This document shows positions 5,831 through 47,020 of a stretch of 64,000 bases of DNA, piece after piece; positions within the stretch are counted from its first letter, which is position 1, and every line of letters begins with the position of its first letter. The position numbers and the translations under genes were made by a program. The stretch is from Candidatus Micrarchaeota archaeon (GTDB taxonomy: Archaea; Micrarchaeota; Micrarchaeia; Anstonellales; Bilamarchaeaceae): positions 13,293 through 77,292 of the forward strand of contig JBBSVN010000001.1 in the NCBI GenBank assembly GCA_038046765.1. The letters run 5' to 3'. A model generated the notes under the pieces. The model worked only from the letters and a program-made list of their open reading frames with translations, made no database searches and was not told the origin of the DNA.

Positions 5831-6472
5831 ATGAATCCTAATCAATTAGTTAAACTGTTATTGCCATTGTTTCTTATTCCGCTGACACTGTACTCAGTTT
5901 CATTATTCGGTCATGATGCGGGAAATGCAGTAATCGGAATCGCGTTCTTTATTGCAGTTGTAAAATTTGCGAACGAAAGCGAACGTAAATACATGATTAT
6001 TCTAGCTGTTTTTGCAAGCATATTTGAGAGCGTAAACGTAATTAGCGGAGGATATAAATACATCGGAGCGCCTTTAGTCCCTCTTTGGGTTGGTTTAGGT
6101 TGGGGTATTTTAGGATTATATTTAGTTAAAAATGTTGAAACTTTCAAAAGTATAAATAATAAAAATGCGTATATTCTATCAGCTATTTTCTTTTCTGCAG
6201 TGTGGGTTCTAACTGGCGCAAGCATTCCTTCGCTTGTTTTCTTAGGAGTCGCTATTTCAACTACTTATGTTCTTAGTTTATCCTCCAAATTCCCCGCATC
6301 ATTTTTCTTATTTACTGGAGTTATGGGGGTCGTAATCGAGTTCTTCGGAACTTCGGTTGGAGTTTGGAAATATTTCTTAAACGGTTTACCAATTGACCCG
6401 CCTTTACTCGCTTTAAGCATGGCATATTGTTCGGTTATCGCGTTTGGGATTTGGTTAAGTCGGATTGACTAA
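5831..6472 (+). CDS. polytopic membrane protein (about 6 TM)
   Basis: 213 aa, almost entirely hydrophobic helices. No family assigned. Confidence 0.6.
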   Translation: MNPNQLVKLLLPLFLIPLTLYSVSLFGHDAGNAVIGIAFFIAVVKFANESERKYMIILAVFASIFESVNVISGGYKYIGAPLVPLWVGLGWGILGLYLVKNVETFKSINNKNAYILSAIFFSAVWVLTGASIPSLVFLGVAISTTYVLSLSSKFPASFFLFTGVMGVVIEFFGTSVGVWKYFLNGLPIDPPLLALSMAYCSVIAFGIWLSRID

Positions 6473-7297: not shown

Positions 7298-8320
7298 CTA
7301 ATTCAATATCGCCGCTATCCCGCCAATTCCCTTAAGTCTTTCTCCTGCATCGTTTTGCGCAGTAAATATAATCAGATAAGCACCCTTATGATCCGCATAA
7401 TCAACTAATTTTTCAACTTCCTTTGAATCTCGAAGCAACTCATCTAAAACAAGAAGCTTATTGACTTTGCCAGATTCCACAGCAGCTTTTACTCTCGGGA
7501 TTCCATAAACAGCTAATCCATTTTCCTTCCCTTCTTCTTCCATGATTTTTTCAATGTACTTTAATTCTTTTTGAACACGCTGTTCACCAATAATTTTTTC
7601 TACCGCGCCTCCTTTAAATAATTCGAGTATTCCAGAGCGCTCAGCATAACTACAAAATTCAAAAATAATTTTCTTAAGTAATTTTGGATTTTTATTTTCT
7701 AAAAATGTTTTTAAATTGTCCTTTGTAAATCCAGGCCCAGCTACTAAGACAGTTTCCTCACTTCGGTCTATTTCCCGAGTTATTCTTGTATAATAATCCT
7801 CTGTCTTAGCTTCAAACTTTTTAGGTTCATCACGTTTGCGTGCGTCATTGCTAAATTCTACGCCGTATTCAATTCCGTACCCTCTAACCGTAGCCACAAG
7901 CGCGTGTTCTTCATCAAGTACGATTATTCTTAATTTTGGTTTTTTGGTTTCTTTTTCTGCCTGTTCTATTCTTTTAATTTGGTAAGCTTTCCATTCTTTT
8001 ATTATCTGGATTCTCGTTCCTATTTCAACATCTAAAGTGTGATATTTCCCCATTTGGATATACTCTTCAGGGCTTCCACGAATTATTTTTCCTAGTAGCC
8101 TAAGCCGGTTAAGCGTTTTAGAAAATTCGATGTTTTCAATTTTTATCGCAATGTGCATTGGTTTTTTTTCTTCTTTAGTGCCTATTTTGACAGTTCTAAA
8201 AGTGCCTGATTCTACTTCGTCACCTACGCTTAATGACCTTTCAATGTGCCAGATATCTTCAAGGTTTTCTGTTCCTAGTATAAGTAAATTGGCTTTTCTG
8301 TCGAATTTGAATATTTTCAT
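7298..8320 (-). CDS. pelA: Pelota (Dom34 homologue, mRNA surveillance factor)
   Basis: MKIFKFDRKANLLILGTENLEDIWHIERSL..GD N-terminus and eRF1-like C-terminal domains ending GIGGIAAILN. I prefer ATG at 8320 over the track start at 8350. Confidence 0.85.
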   Translation of the reverse strand: MKIFKFDRKANLLILGTENLEDIWHIERSLSVGDEVESGTFRTVKIGTKEEKKPMHIAIKIENIEFSKTLNRLRLLGKIIRGSPEEYIQMGKYHTLDVEIGTRIQIIKEWKAYQIKRIEQAEKETKKPKLRIIVLDEEHALVATVRGYGIEYGVEFSNDARKRDEPKKFEAKTEDYYTRITREIDRSEETVLVAGPGFTKDNLKTFLENKNPKLLKKIIFEFCSYAERSGILELFKGGAVEKIIGEQRVQKELKYIEKIMEEEGKENGLAVYGIPRVKAAVESGKVNKLLVLDELLRDSKEVEKLVDYADHKGAYLIIFTAQNDAGERLKGIGGIAAILN

Positions 8321-9711: not shown

Positions 9712-11646
9712 TTGGATATGACAAGAAGGCTCACTCCAAGTAGTGGCAATGTAATACCTATAGAAGCAGCTAGAACTAGAGCTTTTGCCGTCAAAACTGA
9801 CCAAGATCACAAATCTTTAGGGATAGTTACTGGAGAAAGGGGAGGTTATGAACTAAAAAAATCTATTTTCAAGAACAATGGCACAACTGAATTATTTTTA
9901 GCAACTGATTTAAAAACTAATAAAGAGGTAATCGTAAAAAGAGTAACTCTTAAGGCAGAAGATTCAACCTTTAAACTTGCCCCAAGGGAATTTGACATTA
10001 TAAACTATCTAGATCATCCAAACGTGGTTAAAGCGATTGATCAGACTATGACATCGAAGGAAAAAGACGGAAACCAGATAACCGAGTATTTCTTAGTAAC
10101 AGAAAAAGTCGAAGGCAAAAATCTAAGGGAACATAGCGCTTTTGGCACTAATTTTTCAGAAGAAGAAAAAATAGAAATTATAACACAGATTTTGCAGGCA
10201 CTAGAATATCTTCATGATAGTGGCGTAATACACAGAGATGTAAAACCAGAAAACATAATGGTTCATAAAACAGAAGATGGAAAAATAAATGTAACTTTGG
10301 TTGATTTTGGCGTTACGCTTACTGCAGTTAGTACTGGTTCAACCGCGCTTCTTCCAATATTTAGTAAGGGTTTTACTGCTCCAGAAGTTTTAGCATGTGC
10401 ATCTGATGTTGATGGCAGAGCGGATATCTATTCTACTTCAGCAGTTTTGTCCTGGATTTTTACCGGTTTAGATGGAACAGATATGCAAACTAAATTAAGG
10501 ACCAAAGAAGAAATTGACTGCATTGATGGTCAACTTTTAAGTATAATCAAAAAGGGATTAAAGGCAGACCCTGAAGAAAGATATCAAACTGCAAAGGAAA
10601 TGAAGGAAGCTTTGGTTAGTGAGATAGAAGAAGGGGCAGATATTGCCGTAGTTGAACCCATTGACAAAGTGAATAAAATTTATCGAGAACTTAAAGCAAG
10701 AAAAATGGAATTAAGAACTAAGTATGCACAATTGGATCGTTCATTTAAGGAAAGCATGAGAAAAACTTTGAAATATGTTATCCCGTCATTTGTAGTTTCT
10801 GTAGCTAGTCTTGGTTATATTTTGACTGAACAACCAAAAGGACTGGCAGCTTTGCTATCTAGTATTGGAGTCTTCTTAGGTTTAACTGTTGCTGGTTTAG
10901 TGTTGCATTTTAAGTCCAAGGCTAACGCGGATAAACTTAAAAATCTGGATGACCTAGAATTACAAATCGGTGATCTTGCATCAGATTTAGAAGAAATTGA
11001 AACAATTCGGGATTTGGATTCTAAGCGTGATCTGTTTTTAGAAGCTAGATCAGAATCTTTGCTTAGGCTTAAGTCTTCAAAAAAAGCATTAAAAGAAGCA
11101 AAAGTCAAAACACAAGACACGGATGTTGTCGACTGGTTCCTTCTTGACCTTACAAGTAAAGAAATCCAAGTCCATAAAAACTTAAACTTAGAACAAACTC
11201 TTGCATTAGAAAGACTAGATTTTGTAATTTTACCAAATAGTGTTATTGATGAGATTTTACAAGATGGTGCGTTAAGAGAAAAATACACAAAGCTAGGTTT
11301 ATTCCCCTGCAGGACTGGAACATGGGTAGAACTTGATGGAGAAAATTGTATAATAAAACAGGATGGAAAAAGTAAGAAAACAAAACTGCATATACAAGAT
11401 GGCTGGTATAAAAAAGATAACCTCGGCATTCCTTCTGGCGAACCTACAAATGAAAATGATCAAGATGCAAGATTTTTGTGGAGAACTAAAAAATATGTTG
11501 GCCCTTTGGTCCGTGGCTTCGACTGGAACGACTTCAACGGGCAGGATGTCGGTGCCCTCAGAAGGCTCGACGGCGGTTACGGGGTGGCGTGCATTTCTCG
11601 AGCCAAATACGAAGAAATTTTGGCTCGATCTATTCAAAATGAATAA
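9712..11646 (+). CDS. Ser/Thr protein kinase, two TM helices, coiled coil, C-terminal variable-looking module
   Basis: Hanks-type motifs VIVKRV (Lys), HRDVKPENIM, DFG and TAPE. Two TM helices lie around aa 355-400. The C-terminal about 130 aa is paralogous to ORF 39954-40829. Confidence 0.85.
   Translation: MDMTRRLTPSSGNVIPIEAARTRAFAVKTDQDHKSLGIVTGERGGYELKKSIFKNNGTTELFLATDLKTNKEVIVKRVTLKAEDSTFKLAPREFDIINYLDHPNVVKAIDQTMTSKEKDGNQITEYFLVTEKVEGKNLREHSAFGTNFSEEEKIEIITQILQALEYLHDSGVIHRDVKPENIMVHKTEDGKINVTLVDFGVTLTAVSTGSTALLPIFSKGFTAPEVLACASDVDGRADIYSTSAVLSWIFTGLDGTDMQTKLRTKEEIDCIDGQLLSIIKKGLKADPEERYQTAKEMKEALVSEIEEGADIAVVEPIDKVNKIYRELKARKMELRTKYAQLDRSFKESMRKTLKYVIPSFVVSVASLGYILTEQPKGLAALLSSIGVFLGLTVAGLVLHFKSKANADKLKNLDDLELQIGDLASDLEEIETIRDLDSKRDLFLEARSESLLRLKSSKKALKEAKVKTQDTDVVDWFLLDLTSKEIQVHKNLNLEQTLALERLDFVILPNSVIDEILQDGALREKYTKLGLFPCRTGTWVELDGENCIIKQDGKSKKTKLHIQDGWYKKDNLGIPSGEPTNENDQDARFLWRTKKYVGPLVRGFDWNDFNGQDVGALRRLDGGYGVACISRAKYEEILARSIQNE
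11500..11592 (+). other. local G+C-rich, A-poor, NNC-codon patch inside the kinase 3' end (DGR VR-like)
   Basis: Hand count over 11500-11604: about 64 percent G+C and 15 A in 105 nt. 17 of 31 codons end in C and 1 ends in A, against AT-rich flanks. Confidence 0.6.
11599..11627 (+). other. 9-bp hairpin immediately 3' of the G+C-rich patch
   Basis: CGAGCCAAA (11599-11607) pairs perfectly with TTTGGCTCG (11619-11627), with an 11-nt loop. Confidence 0.6.
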
Positions 11647-38284: not shown

Positions 38285-39769
38285 CTATTTTTTCTTATCT
38301 TCAATACTTGGAATTTCTTTTGCAAGAGCAACGGTCTCAAATTCAGGTATAAGTTGTAAAGTTCTTAAAATCTCAAATCTTGGGTCAGACCTCACTCTTT
38401 TAACATATTCGTTGTTAGGGTCTGCTTTTTTCAATTCTCTAAACTTAGTCCATAAAAGAGCAGTCGCTCGCATACCTCTTCTTTGTGATTCTGTTGAGTT
38501 TGCATTACCTGTTACAAATGCATTTTGTGAATTTGTTATGTCTCCTCCCCAAGCGTGTGTTTTATCTCCTGTTAATATCGCCATCAGACCGCGCGACATG
38601 CCGCCTGGAGGGTAATAACTTGAGTCTTTTTTGAAAATTTGGTCTAACTGTTTGGTAAATTCATCAAAACCAGTACCATTAATTTTAAGGTAATTTTCTT
38701 CGCCATTTGGAAGATGTGCAAAAAATAGATACAGAAGTTGGTTATATACATAAACTTTTTCAGATGCAGCAGTATTGTATCCCTTACTCTTGGCAATTTC
38801 GATTGAAGTAACCTGCGCGTATCCTTCTTTTAATGGATAAAGTATATTACTTTGGTCAAAATGATGTAATTGTTCATGAACAGATGCAACATATATCGTG
38901 CCATCATCAGGTTTAGCTTTAACCATTGATTCTAAATTAAAGAGCACATTGCCGCTATGTCTATGATATATTCCAAATGCCAGACCAGGAATATAATCGA
39001 CATTATCAAATGGTTGTGGTTCTCGTGCACCGCCATCGGTCCCAGTTTGTTTTACTTCTGATTTTTCAGGGATATCAACTGGTACCTGGACATTTACGCT
39101 AGCTCCGTTTCCGAATCTTCTTAAGAGATTAGCTGGGATGTTTGTGCGATTACCATAATATTCTCTAACTGCTGCAACTGCACTATCTTTATAATCTATA
39201 AGTTCTTTTTTTACTTTTGTGTGCTGGGTACCTAATATTTTTGCATTTTCAATAAAATGAATTACTTCGGGGCGTTTAAGAAGAAGATCTACAACAGAAG
39301 AAAATTCAGGTAGTTTATCTGTCTGTTTTTCTTTAACAATTTCTTTTTTCCCTTCTTCGGATTTTTGTTCCTCTTTCACTAGCTTTATTGGTTTAGTCAT
39401 CTTTGCCAAATATCTGCTTGCTTCATAGTAATGCTCTTTTTGATCTCCCGTTCTACCAGCTAGTTCGTAAGCTATTTCTTCTGTTGCTTTAGTGATAATT
39501 TTTCCTTTTTTCCTCTCCGCTGCAATTTCTATTTCGATAGCTTTTACTGGACTTTGCTCGGCAAGTTTGGAAAATAATGTTGCCTTTAATCTTCCGGTAC
39601 CTCCGCTAGAATTAGTAAGAATCGCGTCAACTTCCTTTGAATTGTTTAATACTAAATTTCTATTAAGATAAAACTCAAAAACAGATTCAGTTTTTTTACC
39701 TAGTTTCCTGTTTTTTATATCTTCACGCGCGTCAAATTCTTTTGGTGCTCCAGTTGTCATTTCTGCCAT
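38285..39769 (-). CDS. HExxH protein (putative zinc metallopeptidase), paralogue 1
   Basis: VHEQLHH followed by KEGYAQ. The N-terminal region aligns by eye with 44755-46035 (SVFEFYLNRNL vs SVLEYYQLTYL; IEIEIAAERKKGKI vs LRIEISAMEKKHGI). ATG 39769 is preferred to the track start 39832. Confidence 0.6.
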   Translation of the reverse strand: MAEMTTGAPKEFDAREDIKNRKLGKKTESVFEFYLNRNLVLNNSKEVDAILTNSSGGTGRLKATLFSKLAEQSPVKAIEIEIAAERKKGKIITKATEEIAYELAGRTGDQKEHYYEASRYLAKMTKPIKLVKEEQKSEEGKKEIVKEKQTDKLPEFSSVVDLLLKRPEVIHFIENAKILGTQHTKVKKELIDYKDSAVAAVREYYGNRTNIPANLLRRFGNGASVNVQVPVDIPEKSEVKQTGTDGGAREPQPFDNVDYIPGLAFGIYHRHSGNVLFNLESMVKAKPDDGTIYVASVHEQLHHFDQSNILYPLKEGYAQVTSIEIAKSKGYNTAASEKVYVYNQLLYLFFAHLPNGEENYLKINGTGFDEFTKQLDQIFKKDSSYYPPGGMSRGLMAILTGDKTHAWGGDITNSQNAFVTGNANSTESQRRGMRATALLWTKFRELKKADPNNEYVKRVRSDPRFEILRTLQLIPEFETVALAKEIPSIEDKKK

Positions 39770-39953
39770 ACAATAATATGAGATTAACTTAATTAAAAAA
39801 GCTACGTGCCAATGGCTAAGAACTAAAGGCAACTAAATAGGTACCTTGGCTTAACCGTATATTAAGTTTATTTTAATGTAAAACAATGGTTTATAAATAC
39901 TTCGATGCACATTGTATTTACTAATAATTACAACATTTAGAGGCGTTAATTTT

Positions 39954-40829
39954 ATGAGCACAACAATTCAACAACCAACTCAAAGAATAAGAGGCCCAAA
40001 GTTAGAAGTGTTCATATCAAGATTATATGGTCTTCCTTTTGATGAAGAATTAGCTAGAGCAGATAAAGATAATAGAGTTATTGTTTCTAGTAAAAGACTA
40101 AGTTCAGCCCTAATTGGAAGCGATGAATGGAAAGCAATCAAAAAAGCTTTTGCTTGCTGGTCTGGAACTATGACTGCTTATGTTGAACCAAATGTAGAAC
40201 TTGGGCAAGCTGCTAGAAGACTTAGCGATCTTGGAGATTTTCCTAAGTTAAGTAAAAATCAGTACGAACATGCTATTGTTTATACTGACCCCCAAACAGG
40301 AAATGATTGGATCTTTCCAATTCCAGAAAAATATTTAAGAGTAAAAAATGGAATTTTAGTTATTGAGCACCCTGATTATGGTTTAGATAGAGAAGGAACA
40401 AATAGATTAGTTTTACCAGTATCAGTTGAAAGAGTTGATTTAGTTGAAGGTTTTCCAGTTCGAAATGGTTGGTATTTACCAGATGCGATTCATGGAATAC
40501 CTCAAACAAGTCAAGTAGATTATTCAACTAAAGCTAGACACTTGTGGAGAGTTGATAAAAGAGTTGGTCCGGTTAGGCTCGGCTACGACGACATGGGCGG
40601 CATCGACGACATTAACGGGCGGTATGTCGACTTTGACGATAGGCCGTCCAATGGTTACGGGCTGGTAACAGAGGCCAGCGAAGCTGGCACGCCGGCTACA
40701 AAAGACGAAATTAAAACTAGTAGACAATCTAGCGTCATTCAGTTAAATGAAGGAGACTCCGAATTAATAATTCGAGGAAGCGATGCAAAAATTGAAGCAG
40801 CTTTAAGACTTTTAGAAAGTTTGAGATAA
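39954..40829 (+). CDS. stand-alone protein carrying the same C-terminal module as the kinase (variable-looking)
   Basis: Shares FACWSGT / NGWY..D..GIP / AR.LWR....VGP..G.D with kinase residues FPCRTGT / DGWY..D..GIP / ARFLWR....VGP..GFD. ATG at 39954 is preferred. Confidence 0.6.
   Translation: MSTTIQQPTQRIRGPKLEVFISRLYGLPFDEELARADKDNRVIVSSKRLSSALIGSDEWKAIKKAFACWSGTMTAYVEPNVELGQAARRLSDLGDFPKLSKNQYEHAIVYTDPQTGNDWIFPIPEKYLRVKNGILVIEHPDYGLDREGTNRLVLPVSVERVDLVEGFPVRNGWYLPDAIHGIPQTSQVDYSTKARHLWRVDKRVGPVRLGYDDMGGIDDINGRYVDFDDRPSNGYGLVTEASEAGTPATKDEIKTSRQSSVIQLNEGDSELIIRGSDAKIEAALRLLESLR
40566..40699 (+). other. second local G+C-rich, NNC-codon patch with embedded hairpin (DGR VR-like)
   Basis: 19 of 45 codons end in C. 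Hairpin GCCAGC-gaa-GCTGGC at 40674-40688. The flanks return to AT-rich composition. Confidence 0.6.
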
Positions 40830-40837
40830 AATTAATT

Positions 40838-41227
40838 TTAAATTTTTCTTAATGTCTCCTCTGGTTTAAGTATTATTATTTCCCTAAATTTCTCTAAGTC
40901 CAAGAGATGATGATCATACGAAACAATAAAATCAGCATTAGCTTCTACTGCCCCTTCTAAGACTTTGTCATCATCCGAATCTACTTTAATAAATTCTATT
41001 TTCTCTTTTGGAAAAACTATTATTAAAATCTTTATAAGTTCCTTTATTCTCTCATCCTTCTCTTCTTCATTATGTTCGAAATCTCTTTTTAAAATTTCCC
41101 CATATTCTTCCAAGATTTCTGGACTTGTAAATCCTTCGATTTGTTTTTCTTGTATTTTAAGAAGTAATTCATAAGCGACGCCCTTAGAGATCGTACCTGA
41201 AATTAGTACGTTTGTATCAAGAAAAAT
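40838..41227 (-). CDS. PIN-domain toxin (PIN_3 type), apparent ATT start or TAG read-through
   Basis: The track ORF starts at TTG 41113. In-frame upstream codons encode TTKIFLDTNVLISGTISKG, the canonical PIN N-terminus. They begin directly after the antitoxin TAG (41237-41239) in the same frame, with no ATG/GTG/TTG in between. Confidence 0.65.
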   Translation of the reverse strand: MFLDTNVLISGTISKGVAYELLLKIQEKQIEGFTSPEILEEYGEILKRDFEHNEEEKDERIKELIKILIIVFPKEKIEFIKVDSDDDKVLEGAVEANADFIVSYDHHLLDLEKFREIIILKPEETLRKI

Positions 41228-41236
41228 CTTAGTAGT

Positions 41237-41512
41237 CTAAGGAACGCCGCGCCTCTTGTGAACTATCTTTACTACGTCTTCTTGTTTTATTCCCAAAGAT
41301 TTGGCTTTTTTACTGCTCTCTTCTACAAGTTTGTCCCATGAAGATTTAAAATCTTCTTTACTCGGTTTGTAAACTTTTTTTAGCATAATTGTATCTCCTG
41401 TACCAAATACTGCGAATACTGTACCTTTTCCCGCTTTAATCTCGTTACGAATGTCCAATGGTATTACTATTTGCCCTTTTGATGTCATATGTGTTATTTC
41501 GACTTCCGACAT
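41237..41512 (-). CDS. AbrB/MazE-type antitoxin
   Basis: MTSKGQIVIPLDIRNEIKAGKGTVF is the SpoVT-AbrB signature. Confidence 0.75.
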   Translation of the reverse strand: MSEVEITHMTSKGQIVIPLDIRNEIKAGKGTVFAVFGTGDTIMLKKVYKPSKEDFKSSWDKLVEESSKKAKSLGIKQEDVVKIVHKRRGVP

Positions 41513-44227: not shown

Positions 44228-44755
44228 ATGGATGAAATTGAAGTTAAGGTAATTGAAGAAGATTTTACGCTAATTAGAAAGCAACTAATAAAATTAGGTG
44301 CTAAGAAAACATTTTCCGGTAAATTTTCAACTATTTATTTGGACACTTCCGACCTAAAATTTAAAAATGAGAAGAAAGTTTTGCGAGTCCGAGAAGGCAA
44401 GAAAAATGTAATTACTTTTAAAGAAACAGTTAGCGAGAGTGGCATAAGTATCTATGACGAACTGGAAACCGAGGTTAAAGATACAGAAATTCTTGTTCAA
44501 ATCCTAAAGCGACTTGGTTATATTATCTCTGATAAAATAGAAAAAATAAGAGAAATTTACGAGCTAGATGACGCGGAAATTGTTTTTGATAAGCTTCTTG
44601 GTAAATACTATTTTGTTCCAGAGTACATGGAAATCGAAGCATCTAATAAACAGATAATAGAATCATATATATCTAAATTAGGCGTAAAAAGCGAGAACAT
44701 AAAGTCTATAAATAGCCACGAACTTATTAATTATTATAAGAAAAAGAATGACTAG
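44228..44755 (+). CDS. CYTH-domain protein (CyaB/ThTPase family)
   Basis: N-terminal EIEVKV signature and alternating acidic/basic beta strands over 175 aa. Confidence 0.7.
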   Translation: MDEIEVKVIEEDFTLIRKQLIKLGAKKTFSGKFSTIYLDTSDLKFKNEKKVLRVREGKKNVITFKETVSESGISIYDELETEVKDTEILVQILKRLGYIISDKIEKIREIYELDDAEIVFDKLLGKYYFVPEYMEIEASNKQIIESYISKLGVKSENIKSINSHELINYYKKKND

Positions 44756-46035
44756 TGAAATTGATGGAAGCAACAAAAGTTTCTGCTTTAGAAAAAAAAG
44801 CACAAAGTGTTCTTGAATACTATCAACTTACTTACCTGCCAATTACTCTAAACAAAAGATCATTTACTGCAAAAGAATCAGAAGAGATTATTAAAAAGGC
44901 AGTTCTAACAAGTACAAATAATCCTTCTAAAATACGATCGGGAGTATTTAGGGAACTTACCTATCGAAATCCAGAACTTGCCTTAAGAATTGAAATTTCA
45001 GCAATGGAAAAAAAACATGGGATTAAATTAACAGAAGTCGAACAAAGTAATCTCGTAATGTTAACTGCAAAAACGTTTGTGCAAGATAAGTCTTTTAATA
45101 AAATAGAAGCGCATGAGGCATATCTGGGAGCAAGTAAAAAACTAAGTATTCTAGTAGAAAAAAAATTACAAAAACAAATTCCATCAACACCTAAAGAAGT
45201 TCCAATTGCAGCAGAAGATTTTGAAAAAGTCGTTGATACAACATACAAAAAAGCATTTGTTGATTTTAAATCTTTTTTAGATCGAACTGGATTTGGTGAT
45301 ATCTCAAAGAAAATGCCAACAGCGCCTCCAATAAATATTCTTGAATCAAATCCATCTAATCTTGCTGAGTATGATTCTGATAAAAAATCTATAAATATCT
45401 TTAAGGAAAACTTAAGAAAAAATCCTTCTTTACTTTATGGCACGCTTGTACATGAATTATTTCACGCAAGTTTTGATGCTTACGCAAGCAAAGATGCAAT
45501 GACAATCTTTGCGGGTAGTTCTGTTTTTTCACGAGTCATGAATGAAGGGCTAGCTGAGATAATGTCTGGTATTTTTAATGACTTAGAAAAAAGAAATGTT
45601 TACTATGGATCTAGAATAACTGCTGGCTTATTTAAGTGGATTCTTAGCTTGGACTCAACTGGTTTTAATTCAAAAGGTGGGATAACTGTTCCAGAAATCG
45701 GAAAAAATAAGGTTATGCGAGCAGTGCTAAACCATGATTGGCAATCATTAAGGGAAAGTTTTGATGCTAAATTCGGAAAGGATTCCTGGGGAGAATTTTT
45801 TAAGACTCTTACTCGGGATAAAGATAGGAAAATTATTGAAGATGAGGACAAATACGAAAAAGCCGCCATTAACGGAATGGTCTACATGTTAGATAATGTT
45901 TCTAAACTAGGTCAATCGGATGTTCAAAGAATGCTTTCATCAAGGATGATTCTTAATGATCCTGCTTTTAAAGATGTAAAAGACGCTTTATTTGAAGCTA
46001 GAAAAACGGCTATTTATGCTAAAGTTAGTAAGTAA
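44755..46035 (+). CDS. HExxH protein (putative zinc metallopeptidase), paralogue 2
   Basis: LVHELFHAS followed by NEGLAEIM. N-terminal region is homologous to 38285-39769. The GTG start overlaps the CYTH stop by 1 nt. Confidence 0.6.
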   Translation: MKLMEATKVSALEKKAQSVLEYYQLTYLPITLNKRSFTAKESEEIIKKAVLTSTNNPSKIRSGVFRELTYRNPELALRIEISAMEKKHGIKLTEVEQSNLVMLTAKTFVQDKSFNKIEAHEAYLGASKKLSILVEKKLQKQIPSTPKEVPIAAEDFEKVVDTTYKKAFVDFKSFLDRTGFGDISKKMPTAPPINILESNPSNLAEYDSDKKSINIFKENLRKNPSLLYGTLVHELFHASFDAYASKDAMTIFAGSSVFSRVMNEGLAEIMSGIFNDLEKRNVYYGSRITAGLFKWILSLDSTGFNSKGGITVPEIGKNKVMRAVLNHDWQSLRESFDAKFGKDSWGEFFKTLTRDKDRKIIEDEDKYEKAAINGMVYMLDNVSKLGQSDVQRMLSSRMILNDPAFKDVKDALFEARKTAIYAKVSK

Positions 46036-46916: not shown

Positions 46917-47020
46917 TTCACCTGAAAAGTTTTTTATTATTAAGATAAACTACAAACAAAAGCTTATAAATACATGTTAGTACATATTTATTGCTAATTA
47001 TTATAACAGGTGGGTATTTA

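Follow-up and report, generated by a model that had tools for sequence, protein, structure and literature searches.

A probable diversity-generating retroelement variable region with a conserved downstream hairpin in a stand-alone gene of a Micrarchaeota archaeon

A 64-kb stretch of an 82-kb contig from a groundwater Micrarchaeon (JBBSVN010000001.1; the whole stretch is referred to below as the window) carries at 39954..40829 (+) a gene for a 291-residue protein that homology places in a Micrarchaeota family of variable proteins of diversity-generating retroelements (DGRs). A short G+C-rich patch within this gene, at 40566-40666, is very probably the variable region (VR) of a DGR target and appears to have been written by such an element. 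On sequence grounds the patch is considered to be, in a DPANN archaeon, a DGR target of the remote or orphan kind, which is itself already known. The account that we favor, with a probability of about 0.58, is that of a stand-alone target gene whose VR, together with a recognition hairpin lying downstream of it, would still be competent for remote service by a DGR.

The original prediction, which was made from the letters of the window alone, had pointed to a G+C-rich island of about 134 nt in an otherwise AT-rich gene, and this was borne out by the composition of the region, since the G+C content was 61.2% at 40566-40699 (134 nt) compared with a mean of 33.9% for the 64-kb window. No other 134-nt island in the 64 kb reached this value; the second one was located in a kinase gene (11497-11630, 57.5%), and all others were at or below 50%. 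A recount also reproduced the 19 of 45 patch codons said to end in C (C3 = 0.42), and the G+C content at third codon positions (GC3) was 0.69 in the 45 patch codons versus 0.15 in the remaining 246 codons of the open reading frame (ORF). The stretch that had been numbered as codons 218-262 is the same one, but that numbering started at a TTG at 39912; with the ATG at 39954 as codon 1, the start that the homologues back, it comprises codons 204-248. When 45-codon segments were compared across all window ORFs of at least 200 residues, the highest GC3 values were those of the target patch (0.69) and the kinase patch (0.64), and the next one was 0.51. The composition anomaly is a synonymous-site effect that is unique to the two patches. 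In the variable core (40581-40658), i.e. the part lying between the scaffold anchors, GC3 rose to 0.77 versus 0.15 upstream, and Lys, Glu, and Gln were absent from its 26 residues versus a fraction of 0.15 upstream, the residues found being Tyr, Asp, Gly, Ile, Asn, Val, Phe, and Ser in addition to scaffold Arg, Pro, and Met. The patch thus carries the codon signature of adenine mutagenesis, that is, NNY codons derivable from AAY and no residues beyond the reach of AAY.

The nature of the patch became apparent from its relatives. Protein homologues of the target numbered 36, nearly all of them from metagenome-assembled genomes (MAGs) of Micrarchaeota, and a scan of species-representative genomes located 38 genomic loci encoding relatives, again nearly all assigned to Micrarchaeota; no family member was found on a viral contig. 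The family alignment revealed a fixed scaffold, ...ARYLWRIDKRVGPVAR-[about 20 hypervariable residues]-RPSxxxGVAVEA, whose hypervariable stretch falls on the patch. Comparison of each locus with itself showed that in 8 of the 38 loci (L009, L012, L013, L023, L027, L029, L037, and L039) the patch-homologous segment has a second copy, the template repeat (TR), about 450-510 nt downstream and just past the gene. In these eight loci, the mismatches between TR and VR fell on template adenines in 22/23, 18/20, 11/11, 15/16, 20/20, 20/21, 14/15, and 14/15 cases, respectively, i.e. in 90-100% of them, and a gene for a reverse transcriptase (RT; Pfam RVT_1, with a YVDD motif) directly follows the TR in all eight. 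By their sequence organization these loci are canonical target-TR-RT DGR cassettes. The family is therefore made up of variable proteins of DGRs, and the patch in the window is the homologue of their VR. In agreement with this, the patch aligned over its full length to the family TRs at the DNA level (blastn against the TR of L013, E 2e-7), a homology that was visible despite the proteins being only about 40% identical. The G+C content of the VR was above that of its own genome in all loci, reaching 72% in L009, a locus of 36% G+C, and therefore the island appears to be a property of the template rather than of the host.

Homology to the eight verified TR/VR pairs also set the limits of the window VR (VR2), which extends from 5' GGTCCGGTT... 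to ...GGGCTGGT 3' at 40566..40666 (+). Its last 8 nt, GGGCTGGT at 40659..40666 (+), resemble the initiation of mutagenic homing (IMH) sequence that ends DGR variable regions; in the verified cassettes the TR/VR homology stops at GGGGTGGC on the VR side, facing GAAATGAC or GGAATGAC on the TR side. The IMH-type motif of VR2 is CGGGCTGG, a variant that is also present in L017, and that of the VR-like patch of the kinase gene is CGGGGTGGC. Archaeal DGRs have been described to contain hairpins with a GRA tri-loop in the target gene and the IMH/IMH* pair TGGGGT/TGGAAT (PMC4372165), and both features were recovered here, the related cassettes having GGGGTGGC versus GGAATGAC or GAAATGAC and the window hairpin a GAA loop.

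This hairpin or cruciform, GCCAGC-gaa-GCTGGC at 40674..40688 (+), has a 6-bp stem (GCCAGC at 40674-40679 and GCTGGC at 40683-40688) and a GRA tri-loop (gaa at 40680-40682), and it was found with the very sequence and position that the original prediction had given. It had been taken, however, to be embedded in the VR, and this did not hold, because homology puts the VR end at 40666 and the hairpin 7 nt beyond, still within the coding sequence (E-A-S-E-A-G); the offset is the same in all TR-bearing loci. The stems vary among family members but stay complementary, as in GCCCCC/GGGGGC, GCCGCC/GGCGGC, TCCCCC/GGGGGA, and GTCCCC/GGGGAC, with CAGCCAC/GTGGCTG in L039 and GCCAGC/GCTGGC both in the window and in L007. 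In a 22-sequence alignment, stem covariation was 0.298 compared with 0.157 +/- 0.036 after shuffling (0 of 500 shuffles as high), and it was above that of every slid control. The hairpin is present in all TR-bearing loci, whereas the majority of apparently decayed copies lack it. Taken alone, it is thermodynamically ordinary (z = -1.4), and its significance rests on position and covariation. Retrohoming of the BPP-1 phage DGR requires a hairpin/cruciform just past the VR, of which the stem structure counts and the sequence does not (PMC3240598), and by analogy with this literature we infer that the window hairpin acts in cis as a target-recognition element downstream of the VR.

The second G+C island of the window lies in the gene of a Ser/Thr kinase (9718..11646, +), which consists of a Pkinase domain (residues 61-292), two hydrophobic segments (residues 353-400) located ahead of the VR module, and a C-terminal copy of the VR-bearing domain. 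The kinase and the target protein have only this C-terminal module of about 90-140 residues in common (36% identity over 72 residues, E 2e-8). The VR-like patch of the kinase gene (VR1; 11500..11588, +) has the canonical end GGGGTGGC and a GC3 of 0.72 versus 0.24 in the rest of the gene, and it aligns to the TR family. It lacks the family hairpin; downstream of VR1, at 11598..11628 (+), there is an inverted repeat with a 10-bp stem, TCGAGCCAAA and TTTGGCTCGA separated by 11 nt, which folds as DNA with -10.7 kcal/mol (z = -3.1) and shows no homology to the family hairpin. A second Pkinase gene (L002 2188-3915, -; 575 residues), located some 6-7 kb ahead of the window start, has neither a VR module nor a G+C island.

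The presence of two related patches in one genome raised the question of whether one template could have written both, and the original prediction had argued that they cannot both be simple copies of one template. Reading and alignment agreed with the spacing on which it had relied, i.e. 11 codons from aac-ggg to ggt-tac-ggg in both patches and first halves that are 4 codons apart (17 versus 13 codons). Taken by itself, the difference in length argues only weakly against a single template, because TR length varies in the zone of AAC repeats, where the 4-codon difference lies, and cognate TR/VR pairs of the family are themselves gapped by 3-6 nt. Together with the alignment of both patches to one TR family, this would leave room for a common template. 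The base differences lead to the opposite conclusion, since the two patches showed 44 mismatches over 98 aligned positions in addition to a 12-nt gap, and 20 of 53 mismatches fell where all eight family TRs hold a conserved non-adenine base. A genuine one-TR pair of the family (L027/L022, see below) differs solely at TR adenines and has no indel, and the inverted repeats downstream of VR1 and VR2 are unlike. As judged from these scaffold mismatches, one shared template cannot account for both the kinase patch and the target patch, and such sharing is considered very unlikely, so that on this point the original prediction was upheld.

A precedent for service at a distance exists in the family. 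In the MAG OBJ2_061818_150_3, the TR of L027 was compared with the VR of L022, a stand-alone paralogue located on another contig, and all 14 mismatches (14/14) were at A; the VRs of L027 and L022 differ from each other at 17 sites, all of them TR adenines. Because the TR of L027 thus appears to rewrite L022, the family provides a precedent for remote service. A third paralogue of the same MAG, L036, matches the TR poorly and lacks the hairpin. By extension of the known DGR pathway and of the related cassettes to the window, a TR would be transcribed, and a DGR RT would copy it into cDNA with misincorporation opposite template adenines; the cDNA would then replace the VR, a replacement guided by the IMH-like 3' end and the hairpin, and the changes would be limited to AAY-type codons, turned into NNY, in a loop on the surface of the binding domain that the gene encodes. 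The template would be G+C-rich regardless of host composition, and the patch would therefore stand out in a genome of 34% G+C. If the window VR is serviced, this would occur in trans, from a DGR elsewhere in the genome and with a template other than that of the kinase patch.

Several observations weigh against this favored account. The search for a TR and an RT that had been proposed along with the original prediction was run over the window and its flanks (L002, 9.6 kb on the upstream side, and L005, 4.8 kb on the downstream side), i.e. about 78 kb of the 82-kb contig, and neither was seen: blastn with word size 7 and an adenine-tolerant sliding scan detected no TR for either patch and matched nothing beyond the patch itself, poly-A tracts, and, at 63% identity, the kinase patch, and no RT was detected by a six-frame YxDD scan or by tblastn with the family RTs. 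The stretch around the patch that is free of TR and RT thus extends about 50 kb upstream and about 28 kb downstream. Adenine-tolerant IUPAC patterns gave 0 matches in genome contigs, JGI metagenome contigs, and IMG/VR, collections that do not include this genome, and a protein search with an RT profile recovered more than 7900 RT relatives in public data, none of which could be assigned to this genome. The IMH-like end of the window VR departs from the family consensus at two positions, and the core GC3 of 0.77 falls near the bottom of the 0.75-0.96 spanned by verified VRs. The window, GCA_964365985.1, and ERZ1286166, all of them consensus sequences, carry one and the same patch sequence; among the assemblies with the identical patch, one comes from another sample and differs elsewhere, having an overall identity of 97.9% and numerous single-base indels that resemble long-read errors. 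Scored against the consensus of the family TRs, mismatches were not confined to adenines and occurred in 13 of 26 A columns and 16 of 54 non-A columns (p = 0.09), a score that is uninformative on the cognate template because these TRs come from other genomes. Of the 16 non-A mismatches, 7 were C>T, as would be expected both from AT-biased decay and from an own template that has diverged.

These observations can be accommodated by a fossil VR, i.e. one whose DGR was lost or moved away, in which diversification has ended and the G+C-rich codons and the hairpin are remnants that have not yet decayed. The 78 kb devoid of TR and RT, the patch shared unchanged by three assemblies, and the C>T changes, which go in the direction of decay for a genome of 34% G+C, all agree with such a history. 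The family includes evident fossils (L019b, L028, L030, L031, and P0004, the latter from the sister MAG AABX38), and the same alternative was offered by Paul et al. for loci with a VR only (PMC4372165). Yet the window VR does not look like those fossils. In decayed members high GC3 and the absence of Lys, Glu, and Gln have been lost and the hairpin is mostly gone, whereas the window patch keeps a GC3 of 0.69-0.77 versus 0.15 in the rest of the gene, no Lys, Glu, or Gln in its core, and a perfect stem that shows compensatory changes relative to other family members. The difference in GC3 between core and upstream sequence was +0.62 for the window VR, +0.42 to +0.59 for verified VRs, and +0.01 to +0.23 for decayed copies, and the fraction of Lys, Glu, and Gln was 0, 0-0.04, and up to 0.17, respectively. 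Three proxies, i.e. the GC3 difference, the Lys/Glu/Gln fraction, and the perfect 6-bp hairpin, group the window VR with verified VRs and not with decayed copies. The comparison with P0002, an orthologue from the same sister MAG that is 76% identical, also speaks against a fossil at the protein level to which it is confined, since the differences lie mainly inside the VR and are reachable through codon positions 1 and 2 (Tyr to Cys, Asp to Tyr, Asn to Asp, Arg to Trp, and Leu to Val), and the flanks and the hairpin-coding EASEAG are kept. A fossil is thus a possible but clearly less probable explanation, and we lean modestly toward a remote target that is still competent.

An origin that has nothing to do with DGRs, such as a foreign gene fragment acquired by horizontal transfer or gene conversion, a structured RNA, or a composition driven by the amino acids encoded, could be invoked on the grounds that no cognate template was demonstrated and that the hairpin alone is thermodynamically ordinary. 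Such an origin is difficult to reconcile with the fact that the same segment is a verified VR in eight related cassettes and that the patch aligns to their TRs at the DNA level. The anomaly resides at synonymous sites, no Rfam match was found in the window, and a second island occupies the homologous site of a second protein. A non-DGR origin is strongly disfavored and is the least probable of all the explanations considered. Taken together, the proposal that the patch is a DGR target was sustained through protein and DNA homology to verified VRs rather than through a template in this genome.

The RT genes of the related cassettes presented a peculiarity of their own. A homopolymer (G8-G12 or C8-C10) occurs at one shared site, in a variable insertion between the RT domains (L009 ~11561-11572, L013 ~7452-7460, L014 ~11626-11634, L023 ~11548-11557, L029 ~1541-1548, L037 ~1431-1438, and L039 ~5897-5907). 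In 6 of 8 loci the frame is shifted at the homopolymer and the RT is split into two overlapping ORFs; the frame is intact in L039 (G11), and L027 lacks the tract. The tract is either a homopolymer assembly error or a slipped-strand on/off switch of the RT, and the occurrence of both G and C versions at one site, depending on the locus, argues for selection on the tract itself. In L045-L049, the loci of the RT P0077 (samples SRR227461xx and ERZ27237183), a related DGR RT adjoins a candidate target of 214 residues and a phage-type integrase, an arrangement that may represent a mobile DGR; the candidate target shows weak profile similarity to the C-terminal part of the family (hhalign E 5e-4). 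P0077 was rejected as the RT of the present genome because it belongs to other samples.

The target protein lacks Pfam domains, a signal peptide, transmembrane or hydrophobic segments, and close annotated relatives. AlphaFold2 (AF2) modeled the full target ORF with a pLDDT of 85 and a pTM of 0.79 and the minimal domain of the kinase with a pLDDT of 89 and a pTM of 0.82, low confidence being confined to the variable loop. When both models were compared with the PDB by Foldseek, no match had E < 0.1 (best E 0.18 and 0.21; TM at most 0.4), and the full-length model had no significant neighbor in BFVD, the best E values across the PDB and BFVD searches being 0.18, 0.21, and 0.44. Hidden Markov model and profile searches of the PDB retrieved no solved relative, AvpA included. 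Known DGR variable proteins have C-type lectin (CLec) folds, of which new variants keep emerging (PMC8144416; PMC5006420), and the predicted order of elements in the window domain, i.e. a short beta-strand, two helices, several strands, the VR loop, and a short beta-strand, would be compatible with a very derived CLec fold.

An exhaustive search with the kinase module yielded 107 relatives, many of them proteins of about 150 residues that consist of the module alone. These short proteins, of which there are more than 100 representatives (P0158-P0262), follow the pattern FPCWTGT ... DGWY ... ARYLWR ... GLVVRG-variable-GV, with a variable part rich in Gly, Tyr, Trp, Asp, Arg, and Cys, and some end in Cys-rich tails (CxxCG). 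Judging from these sequences, they probably constitute a wide, unannotated pool of DGR targets. The absence of a signal peptide in the target ORF and the two-helix membrane hairpin that precedes the domain in the kinase suggest that the VR domain is cytoplasmic, and by analogy the module would most likely act as a diversifiable ligand-binding sensor. A further step, which we regard as rather unlikely, would be to see in the shared VR domain a non-CLec DGR scaffold that serves in DPANN as a hypervariable intracellular sensor, several per organism, including a Ser/Thr kinase, and on remote templates. If it is true that the domain is not a C-type lectin, it would break the rule that DGRs diversify that fold only.

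A putative archaeal TATA box, TTTATAAATA, was read from the sequence at 39890..39899 (+), 55-64 nt upstream of the ATG, and suggests that the gene has its own promoter. A block of about 55 nt that contains TTTATAAATA recurs with 71% identity at 39881-39935 and 46954-47008 (family D8), and this common upstream block is probably a shared archaeal promoter architecture before two genes. Directly downstream of the target and on the opposite strand, at the place that TR and RT occupy in related genomes, there are genes for a PIN_3 toxin-like protein and for a MazE/AbrB-like antitoxin (40838-41113, -, and 41237-41512, -). The region is flanked by two unannotated ORFs (38285-39832, -, and 44755-46035, +), which are weak paralogues of each other (23% identity over 296 residues, E 0.002) and both have an HExxH-like motif (VHEQLHH and VHELFHA) and no Pfam match. 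Identical contigs are present in GCA_964365985.1 and in the 'Hain_H52' assemblies.

Large surveys pick up DGR targets only beside an RT (PMC8144416), and stand-alone targets are therefore systematically missed. The present case shows that such a target can be recognized from sequence alone when NNY codons and a conserved downstream hairpin accompany an island of high G+C and GC3 in a genome that is otherwise AT-rich, a recognition that then needs confirmation by orthology to verified cassettes. It would also extend DGR targets to a Micrarchaeota family without annotation or recognizable fold.

The window locus can be compared with several known systems. As in AvpA-type CLec proteins (Handa et al. 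2016, PMC5006420), the VR is near, not at, the C terminus, the hairpin lies in a flexible linker past the VR, and the order beta, alpha, alpha, several beta, VR loop, beta would be compatible with a derived CLec; unlike them, the window domain resembles no solved structure either by sequence or by Foldseek. With BPP-1 (Guo et al. 2011, PMC3240598) it shares a GC-rich inverted repeat a few bases past the TR/VR homology, in which pairing is kept and sequence varies, but the stem here has 6 bp and the loop 3 nt, compared with 8 bp in BPP-1 (7-10 in other phage DGRs) and a GRNA tetraloop, and the hairpin here is part of the coding sequence, whereas that of BPP-1 follows the stop codon. The subsurface DUSEL4 Nanoarchaeota (Paul et al. 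2015, PMC4372165) differ in that the present organism belongs to Micrarchaeota, has another target family and the variant IMH GGGCTGGT, and no cognate DGR is known in its genome. The resemblance to them is otherwise close: both are groundwater DPANN archaea, the VR lies inside the target gene and a coding extension comes after it, there is an in-gene hairpin with a GRA loop, and the related Micrarchaeota loci have an IMH/IMH* of the GGGGT/GGAAT type. In DUSEL4, targets with a VR and cis elements and no RT nearby were read as fossil or remotely diversified (PMC4372165).

In cyanobacteria, paralogous variable proteins are scattered at sites apart from the DGR cassette (Vallota-Eastman et al. 2020, PMC7517822), and remote ones were accepted when their VR had at least 50% nucleotide identity to the TR or VR of a DGR in the same organism (PMC7517822). 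The present system is archaeal, and its VR domain is not recognizably a C-type lectin, unlike the cyanobacterial DGRs (PMC7517822). Like them, it has dispersed paralogues and combines in one genome a protein made up mainly of the VR domain, with a short C-terminal tail, and a C-terminal fusion to a Hanks-type Ser/Thr kinase. The target gene and the kinase gene of the window would thus represent an archaeal counterpart of the cyanobacterial pairing of a stand-alone variable protein with a kinase-fused variable domain.

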